Source of the DNA: Escherichia coli
Lineage (GTDB): Bacteria; Pseudomonadota; Gammaproteobacteria; Enterobacterales; Enterobacteriaceae
Strand: one strand, 5' to 3'
Assembly: GCF_003334815.1 (NCBI RefSeq)
Contig: NZ_QOWO01000002.1
Length of the DNA stretch: 64,000 bases
In this document: one piece after another, positions 9,956 to 45,089 of the stretch
Layout of the letters: each line of letters opens with the position of its first letter
Numbering within the stretch: position 1 is the stretch's first letter
Position numbers and translations under genes: made by a program
The notes under the pieces: model-generated
Seen by the model: only the letters and a program-made list of their open reading frames with translations
Told to the model about the DNA's origin: nothing
The model's database searches: none

Positions 9956-10236
9956 ATCCTCTGGGGTATCACTACCGTAATTTGAACCGGCAAGATAATG
10001 CCGAAGTTCTGTAAATAAGTAAAGATTTGCGCGCTAAATCGCAACAAACAGGTTCGGCACATTACTCCGAAAACACACGGCTAAGCCGCACCAAAAGCGC
10101 AACGTATAAGGGAGCGGTGAGATAAACGATGGGCGTTACCTGACGCGAAAAATTCCTTATCGGCAGCGGGGTAATGAGCGTAACCAACTCTGCGACCGCA
10201 ATTATAACACTCTGGGGAGAAATGTGCCGAAAACAT

Positions 10237-10941
10237 TCATTCTTGTGGTGAAAACAAGCATCGTGGTACCCAGAAATTATTCGGCAATCGTCCGAGGCGC
10301 ATTTGATTGAGATAATTAAGGTAATCCCGGCGGGGAATTTCGCAGGCACCAAGCGATGCTGTGTGATCGTTAAGGACCTGGCAGTCGATAAGCTTACCGC
10401 CATGACCGATAAATTCCTCACAGAATACCAGAAGCGCCGTTTTAGACGCATTTTCCATCCGGCTGAACATGGACTCGCCACAAAATAGCGTTCCCTGGGC
10501 CACGCCGTACATACCGCCGACAAGCTCATCTTCACGCCAGACTTCAATGGCGTGGGCATGGCCGAGTTCGTGAAGGCGATGGTAGGCTTCGACCACGCCA
10601 CGCGTGATCCAGGTTCCTTCTTCGCGATCGCTGGCACAGCCTTCAATGACCTGACCAAAAGCGTAATTCATCGTGACACGATAGGGCGAGCGTTTATGAA
10701 ATCGCTTCATACTACGGCTGATATGCAGTGATTCTGGCCATAGCACCGCGCGGGGATCGGGCGACCACCAGAGGATGGGGTCGCCTGGAGAAAACTACGG
10801 AAAAATACCACGCTGGTAAGCCATTAACAGGCGCGCAGGGCTAAGATCGCCCCCAAGTGCCAGCAGGCCGTTAGGCTCACGTAATGCGCCTTCCGGGGAA
10901 GGGAAGGCTATTGAATGGCGAGAAAGCTGAACCAGGCGCAT
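10237..10941 (-). pseudogene. aat: Leucyl/phenylalanyl-tRNA-protein transferase (L/F-transferase) interrupted by an in-frame TAG at codon 49
   Basis: Minus-strand frame from ATG (complement of 10939-10941) reads [68 protein letters not shown], then continues into the 169-aa track ORF 10237..10746; stop is complement of 10795-10797. Confidence 0.8.
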
Positions 10942-10982
10942 GACCGCAAAACTCCACGCAAGTCGGATCGTTCAATAATAGC

Positions 10983-12704
10983 TTACAAACCCTGCTTGAA
11001 CTGGTAATAACGCCCCTGTCTGGCAAGCAGTTCTGCGTGAGTACCTTGCTCAATAATTTGCCCGTTGTCCATCACTATTATTTGTTGGAAACGAGAGAGT
11101 CCGCGAAGTCGATGGGTGACCATTAACACCGTTTTCTCACGCATCATTTCTGCAAGCAATTCAAGGATCTGGCTTTCGGTTGTGGCATCTAAGCCTTCGG
11201 TAGGTTCATCCAGCAACACCAGTGGCGCATCATGTAACAGCGCACGGGCGATAGCCAGACGGCGCAGTTCACCACCGGAGAGCTGGCGTCCGCCTTCACC
11301 TAACCAACTGTTGAGACCTGCATCCTCGAGCAGCTTTTCCAGGCCAACGCGACGCAAGATCTCCGACAGAGCCTCATCACTACTGCCAGGCGAGGCGAGT
11401 AAAAGATTATCACGCAGCGTGGCGCTAAACAGATGCACTCGCTGAGGAACAACGCTGATGGTCTGTCGTAGAGCCGCTTCATTCAGGCTGGCTATGGGGC
11501 TATCGTTAAGCAAAATCTCGCCCTGTTGCGGGTCCCATGCGCGGGTCAGCAGTTGTAACAGTGTTGATTTGCCGCATCCGGTTCGCCCGAGAATCGCTAT
11601 ATGTTCCCCGGCGTTTACCTGAAGAGAAATCCCTTTAAGTGCCTGTTGAGATTGCTCCGGATAAGTGAACTGAACATCCCGTAACGTCAGCGAAACGCGA
11701 TCGGCAACACGAGTTTGGGTATCAGGAAAGGTGACCTCCGGTTTTTGATCCGTTAAGTCAGAGATACGTACGGCAGAGGCAATGACTTGCCCCAGATGCT
11801 GAAATGCACCCGTTACTGGTGCCAGTGCTTCAAACGCGGCTAACGCGCAGAAGACAAACAGGGCAATTAACGCGCCGGGTTGAGCATTGCCGCCAACGCC
11901 GCCAGACGCCATCCACAGCATCAGGATCACCGCTAACGCGCCAATGAGCAGCATTATCGCTTGCGACAATGCGGTCAGTTCAGATTGACGGCGTTGCGCT
12001 TCCAGCCATTGAATTTCTGTATTCTCTAGTTGCGTGCGATAACGATCGCTGGCACCAAAAATGGTCAGCTCAGCTTGCCCTTGCAGCCAGGCCGTCAGTT
12101 GTTGGCGATACTGTCCGCGAAGATGAGTCAGATTTTGCCCGGTGCTTTTTCCCGCACGATAAAACAGCGGTGGCATCAAGAAAAGCGTCAGTAACATAAT
12201 GCCGCCCAGCGTAAAGGCGAGGGTGAAATCAAGGAAACTTAACCCGATTGTCACCACCATAATCACCACAAAAGCGCCCACCAGCGGCGAGATAACGCGC
12301 AGGTAAAGATGATCGAGCGTATCAACATCCGCCACCACGCGATTGAGCAATTCGCCCTGACGATAGCGCGCCAGTCCGGCAGGGGAGAGGGGCAGCAATT
12401 TGCTGAAGGTGTAAATGCGCAGATGCTGCAACACGCGGAAAGTCGCGTCGTGACTTACCAGACGTTCAAAATAGCGCCCGGCAGTACGGGTGATTGCTGC
12501 GCCACGCACGCCCGCAGCGGGTAGCATATAGTTGAAGCTGTACAGTCCGGCAACCCCCGCAACCGCTGAGGCCGAGAGGAACCAGCCGGAAAGTGTCAAC
12601 AGACCGATACTGGCGAGCAGCGTCACAATTGCCAGCACAATACCAAGACTTAACATCCATTTATGACGTTTATACAGTGCCAGATAGGGTAGCAAAGCGC
12701 GCAT
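10983..12704 (-). CDS. cydC: Glutathione/cysteine ABC exporter subunit CydC
   Basis: 573-aa ORF; TM domain plus C-terminal ABC ATPase (GRTGCGKST, LSGGELRR). Confidence 0.92.
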   Translation of the reverse strand: MRALLPYLALYKRHKWMLSLGIVLAIVTLLASIGLLTLSGWFLSASAVAGVAGLYSFNYMLPAAGVRGAAITRTAGRYFERLVSHDATFRVLQHLRIYTFSKLLPLSPAGLARYRQGELLNRVVADVDTLDHLYLRVISPLVGAFVVIMVVTIGLSFLDFTLAFTLGGIMLLTLFLMPPLFYRAGKSTGQNLTHLRGQYRQQLTAWLQGQAELTIFGASDRYRTQLENTEIQWLEAQRRQSELTALSQAIMLLIGALAVILMLWMASGGVGGNAQPGALIALFVFCALAAFEALAPVTGAFQHLGQVIASAVRISDLTDQKPEVTFPDTQTRVADRVSLTLRDVQFTYPEQSQQALKGISLQVNAGEHIAILGRTGCGKSTLLQLLTRAWDPQQGEILLNDSPIASLNEAALRQTISVVPQRVHLFSATLRDNLLLASPGSSDEALSEILRRVGLEKLLEDAGLNSWLGEGGRQLSGGELRRLAIARALLHDAPLVLLDEPTEGLDATTESQILELLAEMMREKTVLMVTHRLRGLSRFQQIIVMDNGQIIEQGTHAELLARQGRYYQFKQGL

Positions 12705-34780: not shown

Positions 34781-37063
<2,283 letters not shown>

Positions 37064-37117
37064 GTAACACCTACCTTCTTAAGTGGATTTTTTATTTACT
37101 GCGTACTTCGACAACCA

Positions 37118-37975
37118 TTAATGGTGGTCGTTTTCACGCAGGTAAATGACCCAGTATGTCAACCCAACCAACAAACCACCACCGATAATGTTGCCGATCG
37201 TAACCGGAATCAGGTTATCAGTGATGAAATTCATCACGGTCAGGTGAGAAAAATTTTCCGGTGCAGAACCGACTGCGGTCCAAAATTCCGGGGATGCGAA
37301 GTCGCGGATTACAATACCCATCGGGATCATAAACATGTTTGCGATACTGTGCTCAAAACCGCTGGCAACAAACATCGCGACCGGCAGCACCATAATGAAC
37401 GCTTTGTCCATCAGGCTGCGGCCAGAATAACTCATCCATACTGCCAGACATACCATCAGGTTTGCCAGGATACCAAGACAGACGGCCTCAATAAAAGTAT
37501 GGTGCACTTTGTGGTCGGCGGTTTGTAGGACGTTTAGTCCCCATTGACCATTTGCGGTCATATACTCGCCGGAAAGCCACATTAAAAGTACAAACAGCAG
37601 TGCGCCGACCAGGTTGCCAAAATAGACATTTAGCCAGTTTTTCGCCAACTGACCCCAGGTGATGCGCCCACTCGCCTTAGCAACAACAATCAACACGGTG
37701 GAAGTAAAGAGATCGGCTCCGCAGACAACACAAAGAATCAGCCCCAGAGAGAAGCAAATGCCGCCAACCAGTTTTGCCATGCCGAAGGGCATTGTGCCTG
37801 TGCCAGTGGTTGCTGTGATATAGAAGACGAATGCGATTGAGATGAAAACACCGGCGGTAATCGCCAGATAGAAAGTCTTAAGCGGATGTTTCGTTGCTTT
37901 ATAGACACCCGCCTCTTCGGCCACTTTGGCCATTGCAGCAGGAAGTAAAAGATCAAAAGGGTTGTCAGCTTTCAC
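37118..37975 (-). CDS. focA: Formate channel FocA
   Basis: ORF 37118..38149; start placed at GTG giving MKADNPFDLLLPAAMAKVAEEAG (285 aa). Confidence 0.9.
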   Translation of the reverse strand: MKADNPFDLLLPAAMAKVAEEAGVYKATKHPLKTFYLAITAGVFISIAFVFYITATTGTGTMPFGMAKLVGGICFSLGLILCVVCGADLFTSTVLIVVAKASGRITWGQLAKNWLNVYFGNLVGALLFVLLMWLSGEYMTANGQWGLNVLQTADHKVHHTFIEAVCLGILANLMVCLAVWMSYSGRSLMDKAFIMVLPVAMFVASGFEHSIANMFMIPMGIVIRDFASPEFWTAVGSAPENFSHLTVMNFITDNLIPVTIGNIIGGGLLVGLTYWVIYLRENDHH

Positions 37976-38035
37976 ACTAACTCTCTCTTTATTAAGTCGG
38001 CGACGAGATACTAACAAAGCATTATAGATGAGAAA

Positions 38036-38049
38036 TTGATATAGATCAT
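38036..38049. promoter_or_regulatory. FNR-type site (TTGAT-N4-ATCAT) upstream of focA-pflB
   Basis: ttgatatagatcat is a 9/10 match to the FNR/CRP-family consensus TTGAT-N4-ATCAA, about 60 bp upstream of focA start. Confidence 0.45.
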
Positions 38050-38304
38050 ATCTCGCCTGGCTTATAGGCCCGTAACTCGCATGGTTTTTATGCAAATACG
38101 GAGTAAATATTTGATTATCCAAATAAAAATAAATTTTAAAAATTAACAAATGAGTTGAATTTTTTCCGCATCCTCCGCTAAAACAGTTAATTAAAAGGGA
38201 GCATCAGGCGAATAAAGTAACAATATCGATCGTATTTATTAAATACAAATTACCGATATTTAACCTTATAATTACAATTATTTTATTAATGCAAATATAT
38301 GTAA

Positions 38305-38330
38305 AGCGGGGCATTAAAAAAACGCCCCGT
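38305..38330 (-). terminator. Probable terminator of ycaO
   Basis: Hairpin gcggggc-attaaaaaaa-cgccccg immediately 3' of ycaO. Confidence 0.4.
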
Positions 38331-38380
38331 AATATAACTCAGACTAATCATTAAGCCTACATTGCGTAGGCTATTTGATT

Positions 38381-40141
38381 TTATTTTGCCCAGAATGCTG
38401 CTTTGGCGCGCTGCAGCTTTTCGTAGGCCTTCAACAACGACTGATGTGCAGCAAACGCGTGCAGATCGCTATCTACCGGTTGCAGGCCGTAAAACGCCGC
38501 TTCGCCGCTCATTGCCGCACTGGCGGCTTCTACGGCATCTGCGCCGTACATGCGAACAAACGCATTCAGATATTGCAGCGGCTGGCGATCTTCTTCCTGT
38601 GCCAGTAATAACAACGTTTGCAGGCAGCGATAATAGTTGGCGCGTTCCGGACTAAATACTGATGAGTTAAACTCCATCGTCCATTCGGTCCAGACCAGAG
38701 CCTGTTCCAGATCGCCACCAGCCAGCGCCAGCATGGCTTTTAATTCACCGATACGCAGGGTGTACCAACCGTTATCCGACCCGGTCGCCAGACCCAACAG
38801 CTCACGCACGCGGGTAAAGTCATCAAAACCTTCTTCATCCAGTTGCTCGATGAGGTTCAGGTAATCTTCTTTTTCCCACTCGCTGCCTGGTAGCGAAAGA
38901 ATCGTTTCACGTAAATGGCTGCCCATACTGTTATTCGCGAGCCACAGATCTTCAGCCGGATAAATATCGGACATGCCAGGCACGATAATACGGCAAGCAT
39001 AAACGCCCAGATGCTCGTAATCGGCAATATAAACTTCTTTATCTTCTTTGTTGAAGATAGCCATCAGTGTGGCGAACTCTTCTTCCGTGGTGCCGGAGAA
39101 ATTCCAGTCCACAAACGGATAATCGGCATCCTGCTTGAACAGGTCCCAGGAGATTAAACCGCTGGAATCGATAAAGTGCGTTTCGAGGTTGGTATGTTCA
39201 GCGACTTCTTCATCATCGAAGGTTGGCGGAGTAAACACATCCAAATCTTTCAGGCCACGACCTTGCAGCAGCTCGGTCACGGTACGTTCCAGTGCTACGC
39301 CAAAATCAGGATGCGCACCGAAAGAGGCAAAGCAGGTACCGTTAGCAGGATTGAACAGTACCACGCAAATCACCGGATACTGGCCGCCAAGCGAACCGTC
39401 ATAAGCGAAGATTGGGAAACCCTCCGCTTCCAGCGTTTCGATGGCTTCAACTACTGCTGGGTAACGCGCCAGCACGTCTGCCGGGATCTCTGGCAGGCTG
39501 ATGCTTTCAGCAATAATGCGGTTTTTCACGTAGCGTTCGAAAACTTCAGACAATCCCTGAACGCGTGCTTCGTTGCGGGTATTACCTGCGGACATACCGT
39601 TGGAGACGTACAGGTTACCAATGATATTCATCGGAATATAAACGGTCTGATTGTCGGACTGACGCGTAAACGGCAGGCCGCAAATACCACGATCTTCGTT
39701 ACCGGATTGTAGGTCAATCAGCATGCTGCCGGTCAGTTCATTCTCCGGATCATAAAACGCGCGCAGACGGTCATCGAGCAGCCCTTCTGGCACATCGTCA
39801 TTTTCGGTCAGTGGGAACCATTTTTCGTTGGGATAATGCACGAACGGACCGTTGGCGATGGTTTCGCCCAGCCAGAAGTCCGCAAAAAAGTAGTTGGTTG
39901 AGAGACGCTCGAAATATTCACCGAGTGCAGAAGCCAGCGCCGCTTTCTTGGTTGCGCCTTTACCGTTGGTAAAACACAGTGCGCACTCTTTGTCGCGAAT
40001 ATGTACAGACCAGACGTTAGGCACGGGATTCAGCCAGGAGGCCTCTTCAATCTGAAAGCCGAGGTCTGAAAGTTTTTGCTGGAAGCGAGCGATGGAATCT
40101 TCCAGAGCGGCATCTTTGCCGGGGATAAATGTTTGCGTCAT
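38381..40141 (-). CDS. ycaO: YcaO-domain protein (ribosomal protein S12 methylthiolation accessory factor)
   Basis: ORF 38381..40174; start placed at MTQTFIPGKDAALEDSIARF (586 aa). Confidence 0.9.
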   Translation of the reverse strand: MTQTFIPGKDAALEDSIARFQQKLSDLGFQIEEASWLNPVPNVWSVHIRDKECALCFTNGKGATKKAALASALGEYFERLSTNYFFADFWLGETIANGPFVHYPNEKWFPLTENDDVPEGLLDDRLRAFYDPENELTGSMLIDLQSGNEDRGICGLPFTRQSDNQTVYIPMNIIGNLYVSNGMSAGNTRNEARVQGLSEVFERYVKNRIIAESISLPEIPADVLARYPAVVEAIETLEAEGFPIFAYDGSLGGQYPVICVVLFNPANGTCFASFGAHPDFGVALERTVTELLQGRGLKDLDVFTPPTFDDEEVAEHTNLETHFIDSSGLISWDLFKQDADYPFVDWNFSGTTEEEFATLMAIFNKEDKEVYIADYEHLGVYACRIIVPGMSDIYPAEDLWLANNSMGSHLRETILSLPGSEWEKEDYLNLIEQLDEEGFDDFTRVRELLGLATGSDNGWYTLRIGELKAMLALAGGDLEQALVWTEWTMEFNSSVFSPERANYYRCLQTLLLLAQEEDRQPLQYLNAFVRMYGADAVEAASAAMSGEAAFYGLQPVDSDLHAFAAHQSLLKAYEKLQRAKAAFWAK

Positions 40142-40270
40142 GAAAATCACTTTAGTCGTACGGAAAGCGCGCAATAATACGGGTTTTATCTCAAAGGCGC
40201 TATCACCGCCGCCATGCCGATGAACTGTTGACTATGCTTTTAGCGGATAAACCACGTTAAGAGCATAAAA

Positions 40271-40963
40271 ATGAAGGCGTTCGATCTCCACCGTATGGCA
40301 TTTGATAAAGTGCCTTTTGATTTCCTTGGCGAAGTTGCACTACGTAGTCTTTATACCTTTGTACTGGTCTTTTTGTTCCTCAAAATGACCGGAAGACGCG
40401 GTGTGCGGCAGATGTCGCTGTTTGAAGTTTTAATCATTCTGACGCTGGGATCAGCGGCGGGAGATGTGGCGTTTTATGATGATGTGCCGATGGTCCCGGT
40501 ACTTATCGTCTTTATTACTCTGGCGTTGTTATACCGCCTGGTAATGTGGTTGATGGCGCACAGTGAAAAACTGGAAGATCTTCTGGAAGGCAAGCCAGTT
40601 GTCATTATTGAAGATGGCGAGCTGGCCTGGTCGAAACTCAATAACTCCAACATGACGGAATTTGAGTTCTTTATGGAGCTACGATTGCGTGGCGTGGAGC
40701 AGCTGGGGCAGGTACGTCTGGCGATTCTCGAAACCAACGGGCAAATCAGTGTCTATTTCTTTGAAGATGACAAGGTGAAACCGGGTTTACTTATTTTACC
40801 CAGTGATTGTACGCAGCGTTACAAAGTGGTGCCGGAGTCGGCGGACTATGCCTGTATTCGTTGTAGTGAAATCATTCATATGAAAGCGGGGGAAAAACAA
40901 TTATGTCCGCGCTGTGCAAATCCAGAATGGACGAAGGCAAGTCGGGCAAAACGGGTGACCTGA
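40271..40963 (+). CDS. ycaP: DUF421 inner-membrane protein YcaP
   Basis: 230-aa ORF recognised as YcaP. Confidence 0.85.
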   Translation: MKAFDLHRMAFDKVPFDFLGEVALRSLYTFVLVFLFLKMTGRRGVRQMSLFEVLIILTLGSAAGDVAFYDDVPMVPVLIVFITLALLYRLVMWLMAHSEKLEDLLEGKPVVIIEDGELAWSKLNNSNMTEFEFFMELRLRGVEQLGQVRLAILETNGQISVYFFEDDKVKPGLLILPSDCTQRYKVVPESADYACIRCSEIIHMKAGEKQLCPRCANPEWTKASRAKRVT

Positions 40964-41161
40964 CAGTAAAAACATCGGCTTTTTGCTAATAATCCGAGAG
41001 ATTCTTTTGTGTGATGCAAGCCACATTTTTGCCCTCAACGGTTTTACTCATTGCGATGTGTGTCACTGAATGATAAAACCGATAGCCACAGGAATAATGT
41101 ATTACCTGTGGTCGCAATCGATTGACCGCGGGTTAATAGCAACGCAACGTGGTGAGGGGAA

Positions 41162-42250
41162 ATGGCTCAAATCTTCAATTTTAGTTCTGGTCCGGCAATG
41201 CTACCGGCAGAGGTGCTTAAACAGGCTCAACAGGAACTGCGCGACTGGAACGGTCTTGGTACGTCGGTGATGGAAGTGAGTCACCGTGGCAAAGAGTTCA
41301 TTCAGGTTGCAGAGGAAGCCGAGAAGGATTTTCGCGATCTTCTTAATGTCCCCTCCAACTACAAGGTATTATTCTGCCATGGCGGTGGTCGCGGTCAGTT
41401 TGCTGCGGTACCGCTGAATATTCTCGGTGATAAAACCACCGCAGATTATGTTGATGCCGGTTACTGGGCGGCAAGTGCCATTAAAGAAGCGAAAAAATAC
41501 TGCACGCCTAATGTCTTTGACGCCAAAGTGACTGTTGATGGTCTGCGCGCGGTTAAGCCAATGCGTGAATGGCAACTCTCTGATAATGCTGCTTATATGC
41601 ATTATTGCCCGAATGAAACCATCGATGGTATCGCCATCGACGAAACGCCAGACTTCGGCGCAGATGTGGTGGTCGCCGCTGACTTCTCTTCAACCATTCT
41701 TTCCCGTCCGATTGACGTCAGCCGTTATGGTGTAATTTACGCTGGCGCGCAGAAAAATATCGGCCCGGCTGGCCTGACAATCGTCATCGTTCGTGAAGAT
41801 TTGCTGGGCAAAGCGAATATCGCGTGTCCGTCGATTCTGGATTATTCCATCCTCAACGATAACGGCTCCATGTTTAACACGCCGCCGACATTTGCCTGGT
41901 ATCTATCTGGTCTGGTCTTTAAATGGCTGAAAGCGAACGGCGGTGTAGCTGAAATGGATAAAATCAATCAGCAAAAAGCAGAACTGCTATATGGGGTGAT
42001 TGATAACAGCGATTTCTACCGCAATGACGTGGCGAAAGCTAACCGTTCGCGGATGAACGTGCCGTTCCAGTTGGCGGACAGTGCGCTTGACAAATTGTTC
42101 CTTGAAGAGTCTTTTGCTGCTGGCCTTCATGCACTGAAAGGTCACCGTGTGGTCGGCGGAATGCGCGCTTCTATTTATAACGCCATGCCGCTGGAAGGCG
42201 TTAAAGCGCTGACAGACTTCATGGTTGAGTTCGAACGCCGTCACGGTTAA
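41162..42250 (+). CDS. serC: Phosphoserine/phosphohydroxythreonine aminotransferase
   Basis: 362-aa [29 protein letters not shown]...; PLP-dependent class V aminotransferase. Confidence 0.96.
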
Positions 42251-42269
42251 TGCCGAAATTTTGCTTAAT

Positions 42270-42295
42270 CCCCACAGCCAGCCTGTGGGGTTTTT
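42270..42295 (+). terminator. Intercistronic hairpin/attenuator between serC and aroA
   Basis: ccccacag-ccagc-ctgtgggg followed by TTTTTATTT. Confidence 0.5.
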
Positions 42296-42320
42296 ATTTC
42301 TGTTGTAGAGAGTTGAGTTC

Positions 42321-43604
42321 ATGGAATCCCTGACGTTACAACCCATCGCTCGTGTCGATGGCACTATTAATCTGCCCGGTTCCAAGAGCGTTTCTAACCG
42401 CGCTTTATTGCTGGCGGCATTAGCACACGGCAAAACAGTATTAACCAATCTGCTGGATAGCGATGACGTGCGCCATATGCTGAATGCATTAACAGCGTTA
42501 GGGGTAAGCTATACGCTTTCAGCCGATCGTACGCGTTGCGAAATTATCGGTAACGGCGGTCCATTACACGCAGAAGGTGCCCTGGAGTTGTTCCTCGGTA
42601 ACGCCGGAACGGCAATGCGTCCGCTGGCGGCAGCTCTTTGTCTGGGTAGCAATGATATTGTGCTGACCGGTGAGCCGCGTATGAAAGAACGCCCGATTGG
42701 TCATCTGGTGGATGCGCTGCGCCTGGGCGGGGCGAAGATCACTTACCTGGAACAAGAAAATTATCCGCCGTTGCGTTTACAGGGCGGCTTTACTGGCGGC
42801 AACGTTGACGTTGATGGCTCCGTTTCCAGCCAATTCCTCACCGCACTGTTAATGACTGCGCCTCTTGCGCCGGAAGATACGGTGATTCGTATTAAAGGCG
42901 ATCTGGTTTCTAAACCTTATATCGACATCACACTCAATCTGATGAAGACGTTTGGTGTTGAAATTGAAAATCAGCACTATCAACAATTTGTCGTAAAAGG
43001 CGGGCAGTCTTATCAGTCTCCGGGTACTTATTTGGTCGAAGGCGATGCATCTTCGGCTTCTTACTTTCTGGCAGCAGCAGCAATCAAAGGCGGCACTGTA
43101 AAAGTGACCGGTATTGGACGTAACAGTATGCAGGGTGATATTCGCTTTGCTGATGTGCTGGAAAAAATGGGCGCGACCATTTGCTGGGGCGATGATTATA
43201 TTTCCTGCACGCGTGGTGAACTGAACGCTATTGATATGGATATGAACCATATTCCTGATGCGGCGATGACCATTGCCACGGCGGCGTTATTTGCAAAAGG
43301 CACCACCACGCTGCGCAATATCTATAACTGGCGTGTTAAAGAGACCGATCGCCTGTTTGCGATGGCAACAGAACTGCGTAAAGTCGGCGCGGAAGTGGAA
43401 GAGGGGCACGATTACATTCGTATCACTCCTCCGGAAAAACTGAACTTTGCCGAGATCGCGACATACAATGATCACCGGATGGCGATGTGTTTCTCGCTGG
43501 TGGCGTTGTCAGATACACCAGTGACGATTCTTGATCCCAAATGCACGGCCAAAACATTTCCGGATTATTTCGAGCAGCTGGCGCGGATTAGCCAGGCAGC
43601 CTGA
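42321..43604 (+). CDS. aroA: 3-phosphoshikimate 1-carboxyvinyltransferase (EPSP synthase)
   Basis: 427-aa [38 protein letters not shown]... Confidence 0.96.
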
Positions 43605-43663: not shown

Positions 43664-45089
43664 TAATGCCAGTCAGTTAAGCAACTGACTGGCTCTTTTT
43701 CGGGGCTGTGGGGTATTTCCAGGGCCTCTCCTTTACCACTCTCGGGAAGGCCCTTTCCCTTCTTGTCGGTAATTTCACAAGTTGTCCCATACTTGCAAGA
43801 TCGCGCATCAGCTCCGGTATACGTCCCGGTGAAGCGCCCTGCAATGTCATCAGCATTCTCATCACCATTCCGCATGATTCTGAGAAACTCAGTTGATTCG
43901 GCCAGTAACCTTTCAGATGTTCCGCCATTTTAATTATCTGATATCTCACCAGATTATAAGCCAGTAAGACACCCCACAGCTCTTGCTCCACAAGCTCCGG
44001 TTTTTTACTTCTCAGCGTCAGCCTGCTCAGTTGCATCGTCTGTTTTATCTCCCTGTATCCCAGTTCGATTTCCCAGCGATGACTGTACAGATCCGCCATT
44101 TCTCCTCCGGGGAAGCGCATGGCGTCCGTCATCGACGTCAGCAGATGGCAGACTTTTCCTTTGCGCGTCACGGTCAGCAGGCGGGCAGTCACTTCATTTC
44201 CCAGTCCCGGCCACTTTTTTCGTGCCTGCGGGCTGGTTTTCAGCTTCACCAGATGATCGCCTTTACCCAGTTTTCTGATCTCTTCATATTGCGCTCCCTT
44301 TCTGAGAGGTATCATCCAGTGGCGGTGTTCTCCCGCCAGGCTCCAGGCATTTAACAGTCCCAGTGAGTAATAACCTTTATCCATTAACGTCAGAGTGTTA
44401 TCGCCGGTTTGTTCTATAAGTTGCTCAGCAAGCTCATTTTCGCTGTTCTTCATCGTGCCGAAGGCTGCAGCCGTCAGCAGATGGCTGGTCAGTTCCATCT
44501 GGCAGACCATTTTGACCTGCGGGTAGAGCGCCGGGTTCCCGGCATGTGTCTGGCGGGGGAAGGCTGCATCGTTCTCTGGTGTATCCGGTGTGCGCCAGAA
44601 CACACCATCGATGGCCAGCAGGGTCAGGCCGCACCAGTGCGGATGCGGCGTGGCGTTATGCCAGAGCTGCGCTGTTTTCGTGAACACGCGGCGGACAGCC
44701 TCACTTCCCAGGCGCTGGCGGGCCTGAATAACGGCACTGGGGGCAACGAAGGGGCGATTGCCCGGCAGCATGATGTCCAGGCGATTCACAATCTGGTGAA
44801 GAGGTTCTTTACGCTCAAGCGCCATGCCAACAATACACCAGACCATCATTTCGAGGGGAAGACGGCGCTTGCGTAGCGTTACAGTACCTGATTCGGCAAG
44901 GCAACGAGAGATGAGTTCGGGGTCGAGGTAATCCCCCAGAGAAGTCAGTGGGTTACGCAGAGAATCGTAACGGGATACCAGATCAAGAGCCTGTCCAATG
45001 TGCATAAAAAAATCCGGAAACAAGTGAGCGTTTCCGGATTCTTACACAGCCACTGGATCGGTCAACTGATCCTTAACTGATCGGCATTA
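43664..45089 (-). mobile_element. IS4: Insertion sequence IS4 (1426 bp), complete
   Basis: Encodes the IS4 transposase InsG; 18-bp imperfect terminal inverted repeats taatgccagtcagttaag and taatgccgatcagttaag (16/18); length 1426 bp; 13-bp direct duplication of target. Confidence 0.92.
43677..45005 (-). CDS. insG: IS4 transposase (DDE family)
   Basis: ORF 43677..45023; start placed at [24 protein letters not shown] (442 aa); recognised as IS4 InsG. Confidence 0.93.

Follow-up and report, generated by a model that had tools for sequence, protein, structure and literature searches.

The ycaO gene of Escherichia coli is very probably a stand-alone gene for uL16 Met82 thioamidation, with ycaP as an unrelated neighbor

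Analysis of a 64,000-nucleotide stretch of E. coli DNA (contig NZ_QOWO01000002.1, hereafter the window) indicates that ycaO very probably encodes the enzyme for thioamidation of uL16 at Met82 as a stand-alone gene, and that the divergent ycaP is an unrelated neighbor. A sequence-only reading of this DNA had described the role of YcaO as incompletely defined and centered on S12, a view that has since been superseded. Rice et al. (Biochemistry 2026, PMC13063428) assigned E. coli YcaO as an ATP/Mg-dependent enzyme that forms a backbone thioamide at uL16 Met82, using deletion, co-expression and in vitro reconstitution. In that study, ribosomes of the ΔycaO strain contained uL16 without the thioamide, co-expression of YcaO with uL16 resulted in complete modification, and full-length uL16 was modified in vitro only in the presence of Na2S, MgCl2 and ATP, the sulfide used there being non-physiological. 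YcaO bound full-length uL16 with a Kd of 9.8 nM, and AlphaFold3 prediction of the YcaO–uL16 complex gave an ipTM of 0.8–0.87 (PMC13063428). YcaO had earlier been predicted as a candidate enzyme (PMC7550191), and the YcaO–uL16 enzymology rests on the one 2026 paper (PMC13063428). Deletion of ycaO alone leaves growth normal in both LB and M9.

The ycaO CDS is located at 38381..40141 on the minus strand and encodes 586 aa, as in the RefSeq CDS on identical DNA. The mechanical ORF extends over 38381..40174 (minus strand, 597 aa from a TTG); RefSeq begins translation at the ATG at 40141, yielding a protein equal in length to PDB chain 4Q84_A. The ycaP CDS is located at 40271..40963 on the plus strand, encodes 230 aa, and is divergent from ycaO. 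The region 38000–41200 showed 100.0% DNA identity to MG1655, and, used as a query, produced matches in every one of 5426 complete E. coli genomes, with at least 80% query coverage in 5422. The encoded YcaO was 100% identical to E. coli cluster representatives, matched PDB 4Q84/4Q85/4Q86 across residues 1–586 (1356 bits), and is the same 586-aa protein as E. coli K-12 YcaO (UniProt P75838), the gene showing no differences. ycaO and ycaP are ordinary, universally conserved E. coli genes. Both were found in the ORF list and among the RefSeq CDSs where the sequence-only reading had placed them, and their identities, sizes and families (YcaO; DUF421 membrane protein) agreed with the ORFs and the domain searches. 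The same reading had described ycaO as convergent with focA, which is wrong: focA (37118–37975) is also on the minus strand, with ycaO upstream of it, and the genes are in the tandem order ycaO, focA, pflB, pflA. The source strain carries an IS4 between aroA and ycaL, and is therefore not MG1655.

YcaO contains an ATP-dependent amide-activating YcaO domain (residues 59–391; Pfam PF02624, 4e-75) and a YcaO_C domain (residues 407–581; Pfam PF18381, 3.5e-65). The protein passed the equivalog threshold of NCBIfam NF040716 ('YcaO_for_S12') with a score of 917.2 bits (cut-off 700), residues 4–577 aligning with profile positions 1–570 of 571. The ATP/Mg-binding glutamates E75, E78, E199 and E202 are all present, and were invariant or nearly so in an alignment of 21 sequences extending down to 39% identity; E202A is an inactive YcaO variant (PMC13063428). 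YcaO is strongly acidic, with a computed pI of 4.38 and 92 Asp+Glu versus 42 Lys+Arg, and most of its full-length relatives have a pI of 4.3–5.7. A pI of 4.4 is a hallmark of uL16-modifying YcaOs (PMC13063428), and the acidity described there (pI about 4.4, complementary to the basic uL16) is found in this protein. YcaO thus shows the family score, the domains and glutamates, the acidity and the stand-alone gene of the uL16-thioamidating group. As far as the sequence can inform, these checks agree with the uL16 role, and nothing in the sequence contradicts it.

In the proposed mechanism, folded uL16 would be held by YcaO through a large acidic surface, and the uL16 loop with Arg81–Met82 would enter the active site. 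ATP/Mg2+ would activate the backbone carbonyl of Met82, giving an O-phosphorylated hemiorthoamide-type intermediate, as extrapolated from the YcaO family, and a sulfide equivalent would take the place of the carbonyl oxygen. The product is very probably the thioamide beside the peptidyl-transferase center that is visible in 2-Å ribosome maps. The reaction very probably requires no neighboring gene, and proceeds without a precursor peptide, an E1-like/RRE partner or TfuA.

We considered the possibility that the main job of YcaO is instead to help RimO methylthiolate S12 at Asp88 (also numbered Asp89), which appears quite improbable. This role is the source of the name used by RefSeq and NCBIfam, and Strader et al., as relayed in PMC13063428, copurified YcaO with tagged uS12 and observed a decrease in methylthiolation from 99% to 84% in ΔycaO (also PMC3347575). 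However, the decrease is minor and may be indirect, RimO on its own modified an S12 peptide substrate analog in vitro, and S12 modification was wholly lost in ΔrimO (PMC13063428). The AlphaFold3 ipTM values were also non-confident for YcaO–uS12 (0.31) and YcaO–RimO (0.16), compared with 0.8–0.87 for uL16 (PMC13063428). Because of the copurification and the decrease, to the extent that they are conveyed by the citing paper, YcaO may have a minor second role in S12 in addition to uL16 thioamidation.

Comparison of YcaO with the OsmC/YcaO fusions (TIGR03549; Bacteriovoracaceae, Halobacteriovorax) showed that their YcaO and YcaO_C part is 53% identical to the E. coli protein over its whole length and likewise acidic (pI 4.72). 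They differ in an N-terminal OsmC-like domain of ~147 residues with three invariant cysteines, which is absent from E. coli YcaO. The latter scored 681.9 bits against TIGR03549, compared with a cut-off of 900, and aligned with profile positions 148–722 only, and is thus not a member of the fusion family. The fusion could point to sulfur delivery, with a free-standing E. coli OsmC-family thiol protein as the persulfide carrier or redox partner of YcaO, an idea to which we give little credence. No OsmC-like sequence was found in the window or at any unfused ycaO locus, and OsmC is not mentioned in PMC13063428. Two long YcaO fusions were rejected as a clue to sulfur supply on the basis of their domain content, P0211 containing no recognizable additional Pfam domain, and P0264 containing PDZ, Peptidase_S41 and peptidoglycan-binding domains.

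The neighborhood of ycaO was compared over 80 loci, ranging from Enterobacterales to Methylophaga and Bacteriovoracaceae. No neighbor was conserved over these loci, and synteny was lineage-specific only. The ycaO–focA–pfl linkage reaches Aeromonas, and Grimontia too, with a different transporter. The linkage was known in Gammaproteobacteria from Watson et al. 2020, who regarded it as functionally unrelated. Since no neighbor is conserved, the ycaO locus offers no candidate for sulfur supply.

Pfam searches of YcaP revealed YetF_N (residues 22–92; PF20730, 9.5e-5) and the YetF C-terminal (DUF421) domain (residues 97–170; PF04239, 7.9e-17), and hydrophobic segments are present at about residues 18–40, 48–68 and 66–98. 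With a YetF_N transmembrane part followed by the YetF C-terminal domain, YcaP belongs to the YetF/DUF421 family; no NCBIfam model was matched. Its C-terminal CxxC...CxxC motif (C195, C198, C212 and C215) is kept in 99–100% of 109 orthologues, and gave weak Pfam matches to zinc ribbons. AlphaFold2 prediction from a shallow alignment was of low confidence (pLDDT 52.6, pTM 0.31). YcaP is an inner-membrane protein of the YetF/DUF421 type, whose soluble domain is cytoplasmic and whose C-terminal tail is probably a zinc ribbon.

YcaP has YetF_N and the YetF C-terminal domain in common with Bacillus subtilis YetF/YdfS (DUF421, PDB 3C6F; spore inner membrane), and by analogy with these proteins it most likely assembles into oligomers in the membrane and thereby influences membrane properties. 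However, it resembles YetF only weakly (E = 4.7e-6 with 3C6F, across 64 residues), it has the additional CxxC...CxxC tail, and its host is a non-sporulating Gram-negative bacterium. The role of YetF in spore wet-heat resistance (PMC10126465) is not directly transferable to YcaP. In the literature, ycaP features only as a linked genetic marker, and is also listed, with its function unknown, among the YciT ChIP-exo targets.

The divergent arrangement of ycaO and ycaP across a 129-bp spacer (40142..40270) could suggest a functional pair, in which YcaP might, for instance, bring sulfur or metal to YcaO through its CxxC...CxxC tail. The conservation of the four cysteines would be in line with such a function, in which YcaP would fill the place of the sulfur donor of YcaO. 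We nevertheless consider this pairing very improbable, as ycaP adjoins ycaO in only ~20 of ~45 loci of the Enterobacterales and in no locus from other orders. It is missing beside ycaO in Cedecea, Mangrovibacter, Pantoea, Erwinia, Yersinia, Photorhabdus, Pectobacterium, Edwardsiella and Budvicia, and lies ~2 kb away in Hafnia and Serratia silvae. In addition, YcaO from Klebsiella pneumoniae and YcaO from Pseudomonas aeruginosa, each co-expressed in E. coli with the uL16 of its own species, thioamidated that uL16 (PMC13063428). Because the adjacency is limited to part of the Enterobacterales, ycaP is not regarded as a partner of the uL16-thioamidating YcaO.

YcaO enzymes are also found in other systems. 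The methanogen McrA-glycine YcaO (TIGR03266; Methanocaldococcus jannaschii MJ1094, PDB 6PE3) shares the YcaO catalytic domain with the E. coli enzyme and carries out the same chemistry, the ATP-dependent exchange of a backbone O for S on a folded protein. The two are distant (39.1 bits versus a cut-off of 365; PDB E = 7e-4), and the methanogen enzyme acts on short McrA-derived peptides, whereas E. coli YcaO requires full-length folded uL16. No tfuA neighbors ycaO, E. coli lacks a TfuA homologue (PMC13063428), and the protein falls outside the McrA-type TfuA-associated family. The TOMM/azoline cyclodehydratases (SagD, TIGR03604) share the ATP-binding fold and amide activation with E. coli YcaO, but form a heterocycle rather than a thioamide. 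No E1-like/RRE partner, precursor or dehydrogenase gene lies near E. coli ycaO, and with 43.7 bits versus 219.25 the protein falls outside this family as well.

The proteins flanking ycaO are FocA, PflB, PflA, YcaK, YcaN, SerC, AroA and LoiP/YcaL, and no precursor ORF, E1-like/ThiF protein or TfuA was found near the gene. Among ORFs of at least 20 aa, no conserved small ORF was detected in the two ycaO-flanking spacers, including the divergent spacer at 40142..40270, or downstream of ycaP. A 43-aa antisense ORF at 40092–40223 was rejected as a gene, as stops interrupt it in most relatives. The sequence-only reading had noted a lack of RiPP precursor and partner genes nearby, and these ORF and neighbor checks bear it out. 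YcaO was 54–99% identical over the 80 loci, which belong to several orders and have differing flanks outside the Enterobacterales/Aeromonas block, and this broad conservation is in keeping with a fixed housekeeping substrate. A cryptic RiPP (azoline or thioamide peptide) cluster with an overlooked short precursor gene, for which the YcaO domain would be a hallmark and the weak SagD and McrA-type matches a further hint, has next to no likelihood, given this conservation, scores far under the curated cut-offs, spacer ORFs that are antisense overlaps or A+T-rich runs only, and the absence of an adjacent E1-like/ThiF, dehydrogenase, TfuA, transporter or protease gene.

Transcription signals around ycaO were examined by folding and by alignment of the spacers. 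Downstream of the gene, a first hairpin with a 7-bp stem directly follows the stop codon (38354..38372, minus strand), and a terminator-like hairpin, with a 9-bp G+C-rich stem followed by UUUACAUAUAUUU, is located at 38307..38329 (minus strand). The fold of 38285–38385 (minus strand) had an energy of -30.1 kcal/mol (z = -4.2), equaled by none of 200 shuffles. A consensus promoter/terminator scan returned sites no more numerous than in shuffles, and missed the hairpin at 38307..38329 because its stem, loop and T-run criteria were not satisfied; folding recovered the hairpin. Its presence fits the assignment of ycaO by Rend-seq as a simple transcription unit with one promoter and one terminator (PMC9122600).

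Just upstream of the ycaO start, alignment of 19 spacers revealed a 46-nt block (40142..40187, minus strand) kept across Enterobacterales, the remaining spacer being variable. The block contains a -10-like TATTAT (40175–40180) followed by a G+C-rich TGCGCGC, and TATTAT occurs at a similar distance from the ycaO start in Aeromonas and Pasteurellaceae. As an RNA structure the block gave no signal (z = +0.69), and an Rfam search of 36500–42500 at a permissive threshold (E <= 1) gave no match. Because no RNA-structure signal was present, the block was read as a promoter/leader, and probably comprises the ycaO promoter and a short leader. ycaO is monocistronic, with its own putative promoter and terminator-like hairpin.

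The locus itself brings nothing new, and its interest lies in how the gene is described. As a database name, "S12 methylthiotransferase accessory factor" misleads, and reliance on older knowledge leaves ycaO under-described. The substrate of YcaO, which had long been open, was settled in 2026 as uL16 Met82.

Comparison with MG1655 (E. coli K-12) showed 100.0% identity over window positions 38000-41200, and this segment was matched in 5426 of the 5426 complete E. coli genomes searched, with at least 80% query coverage in 5422. The RefSeq gene order of MG1655 on the identical DNA is ycaM, ycaN, ycaK, pflA, pflB, focA, ycaO, ycaP, serC, aroA, ycaL, cmk, rpsA. ycaO (38381-40141, minus strand) encodes 586 aa from the annotated ATG at 40141, beyond which the mechanical ORF extends to a TTG at 40174; PDB chain 4Q84_A, also 586 aa, matches YcaO end to end. 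ycaP (40271-40963, plus strand) is a 230-aa ORF divergent from ycaO, with 129 bp between them. The sequence-only reading of the two genes was confirmed apart from one orientation error: it described ycaO and focA (37118-37975) as convergent, and both lie on the minus strand in tandem. ycaO-ycaP is an already known, well-characterised core E. coli gene pair.

Insertion sequences were observed around this region. In E. coli KFu015 (NZ_CP147130.1) the match to positions 38000-41200 is in two pieces, with an IS1A-family transposase annotated under it together with ycaO, ycaP and serC, which illustrates insertion of an IS within or close to ycaO-ycaP. In the window itself, aroA and ycaL are separated by an IS4 element of 1426 bp (43664-45089), which encodes its transposase on the minus strand (ORF 43677-45023) and is bordered by a target-sequence repeat of up to 13 bp. 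MG1655 lacks IS4 at this site, and the aroA/IS4 junction is whole in only 40 of the 5426 complete genomes, for example NCTC86; the window is therefore not MG1655 DNA.

YcaO contains a YcaO domain (residues 59-391, Pfam 4e-75) and a YcaO_C domain (residues 407-581, 3.5e-65), has a computed pI of 4.38, and passes the NCBIfam equivalog NF040716 (917 bits, cut-off 700). It scored under the cut-offs of the NCBIfam models for TOMM/SagD (43.7 bits, cut-off 219), McrA thioamidation (39.1 bits, cut-off 365) and the OsmC-YcaO fusion (682 bits, cut-off 900). The ATP/Mg-site glutamates E75, E78, E199 and E202 are all present, and are invariant or nearly so in an alignment of 21 sequences with identity down to 39%.

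A 2-A ribosome map revealed a thioamide at Met82 of ribosomal protein uL16, with YcaO as the prime candidate for the enzyme (Watson et al., eLife 2020, PMC7550191), and Rice et al. (Biochemistry 2026, PMC13063428) assigned the modification to YcaO. In the latter study, a proteome-wide AlphaFold3 screen picked out uL16, with the Met82 loop in the YcaO active site, and ribosomes from the ycaO deletion strain lacked the thioamide. Co-expression of YcaO led to full modification of uL16, and ATP-site variants to incomplete modification. Purified MBP-YcaO thioamidated full-length uL16 only with Na2S, MgCl2 and ATP, and did not modify 11- and 21-residue peptides; a Kd of 9.8 nM was reported, and the YcaO proteins of K. 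pneumoniae and P. aeruginosa each thioamidated their own uL16 (PMC13063428). Because the window protein is the very protein studied there, uL16 thioamidation is its established function. The reaction would proceed through a phosphorylated intermediate, as expected from the family mechanism.

These two papers (PMC7550191, PMC13063428) change the interpretation of ycaO. The earlier account, ATP-dependent backbone modification with a link to S12 methylthiolation and an incompletely defined role, holds in part and is out of date given the assignment of uL16 thioamidation (PMC13063428). According to that study the S12 link is weak: S12 modification fell only from 99% to 84% in the ycaO deletion strain, RimO by itself modified an S12 peptide substrate analog in vitro, and the predicted YcaO-uS12 and YcaO-RimO interfaces were non-confident (PMC13063428).

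A RiPP cluster at this locus is rejected, as neither a partner gene nor a conserved small ORF was found. The flanking proteins are FocA, PflB, PflA, YcaK (NAD(P)H oxidoreductase), YcaN (LysR regulator), SerC, AroA and LoiP/YcaL, and include no E1-like/ThiF protein, TfuA, dehydrogenase or RiPP-type transporter; E. coli has no TfuA homologue (PMC13063428). Small ORFs of at least 20 aa in three spacers were antisense overlaps or A+T-rich runs, and the longest in the ycaO-ycaP spacer (43 aa, 40092-40223) is broken by stop codons in most relatives. Rfam gave no match at E <= 1. Identification of the neighbours and the small-ORF search thus bear out the earlier statement that no RiPP precursor or partner lies nearby, and nothing besides ycaO belongs to the system.

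To place ycaO in context, 80 loci with YcaO relatives (54-99% identity) were compared, from Enterobacterales, Aeromonas, Pasteurellaceae, Grimontia, Shewanella, Pseudoalteromonas, Methylophaga and Bacteriovoracaceae. ycaP adjoins ycaO only in Escherichia, Citrobacter, Enterobacter, Kluyvera-like genera and Rahnella; Hafnia and Serratia silvae have it displaced by some 2 kb. No ycaP was found at the ycaO loci of Cedecea, Pantoea, Erwinia, Yersinia, Photorhabdus, Pectobacterium, Edwardsiella and Budvicia, or at any locus of the set outside Enterobacterales. Given this patchy adjacency, ycaP is an incidental neighbour of ycaO. The order ycaO, focA, pflB is maintained in most Enterobacterales loci and in Aeromonas. 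In Grimontia hollisae (Vibrionaceae; locus L066) the place of FocA between ycaO and pflB-pflA is taken by a multi-pass membrane protein of 522 aa (10156-11724), so that a ycaO-[transporter]-pfl layout is retained with another transporter. Clustering of neighbours at non-enterobacterial loci found no family common beyond single lineages. The ycaO/focA-pfl synteny in Gammaproteobacteria was noted previously, and was considered not to reflect a functional relationship, since transcription of focA-pfl is independent (PMC7550191).

YcaP contains YetF_N (residues 22-92) and YetF C-terminal/DUF421 (residues 97-170) Pfam domains, with three hydrophobic segments in its first ~98 residues; no NCBIfam model matches it. 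Its C-terminal tail carries a CxxC...CxxC pair (residues 195-198 and 212-215; window 40853-40918). Across 109 orthologues (77-99% identical) the four Cys are each retained in 99-100% of sequences, and residues around them vary. This pattern suggests that the YetF/DUF421 membrane protein carries an added zinc ribbon; zinc-ribbon matches in Pfam are marginal only. The AlphaFold2 model (31 close orthologues) was too poor for use (pLDDT 52.6). The sole relative with a solved structure is YetF of B. subtilis (3C6F, E = 4.7e-6). In B. subtilis, full wet-heat resistance of spores requires YetF and YdfS, both located in the spore inner membrane (PMC10126465), and no E. coli counterpart to this role was found in the literature for YcaP, which is mentioned as a linked marker or among functionally uncharacterised YciT ChIP-exo targets.

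Bacteriovoracaceae and Halobacteriovorax have abundant fusions of OsmC, YcaO and YcaO_C (P0123 and its relatives P0271-P0389), a known family (TIGR03549). P0123 (locus L082, 6001-8190; 729 aa, pI 4.72), 53% identical to E. coli YcaO, is the one full-length relative among the 50%-identity representatives that has an N-terminal OsmC domain. Three Cys in the OsmC part are conserved in 120 of 120 fusion sequences, which are mutually at least 67% identical. OsmC is not mentioned in PMC13063428, and no OsmC-like gene lies near unfused ycaO at any locus. As a weak Rosetta-stone hint of a sulfur or redox partner, it is conceivable, with low probability, that an OsmC-family thiol protein takes part with uL16-type YcaO. 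The distant YcaO relative P0264 (1105 aa, 30% identical) has an unusual architecture, a fusion with PDZ, Peptidase_S41 and peptidoglycan-binding domains, which is unrelated to the window.

Upstream of focA, an FNR-like site (TTGATATAGATCAT, 38036-38049, ~60 bp from the start) with one mismatch to TTGAT-N4-ATCAA is in line with the anaerobic control known for focA-pfl, and is expected in the pfl regulatory region. ycaO was treated in Rend-seq as a simple unit with one promoter and one terminator (PMC9122600). Two hairpins lie 3' of its stop codon, of which the second (38307-38329; z = -4.2), with a G+C-rich stem of 9 bp and then a U-rich tail, looks like the terminator. Upstream of ycaO, Enterobacterales share a conserved block of 46 nt (40142-40187, minus strand), and the remaining spacer is not conserved. 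In this block a -10-like TATTAT/TATCAT precedes a G+C-rich TGCGCGC; no RNA-structure signal was detected in it, and TATTAT is maintained at a similar distance from the ycaO start in Aeromonas and Pasteurellaceae. From these features we infer a ycaO promoter with a G+C-rich discriminator, stringent-type in appearance, which would be consistent with a ribosome-modifying enzyme controlled by growth rate or the stringent response.
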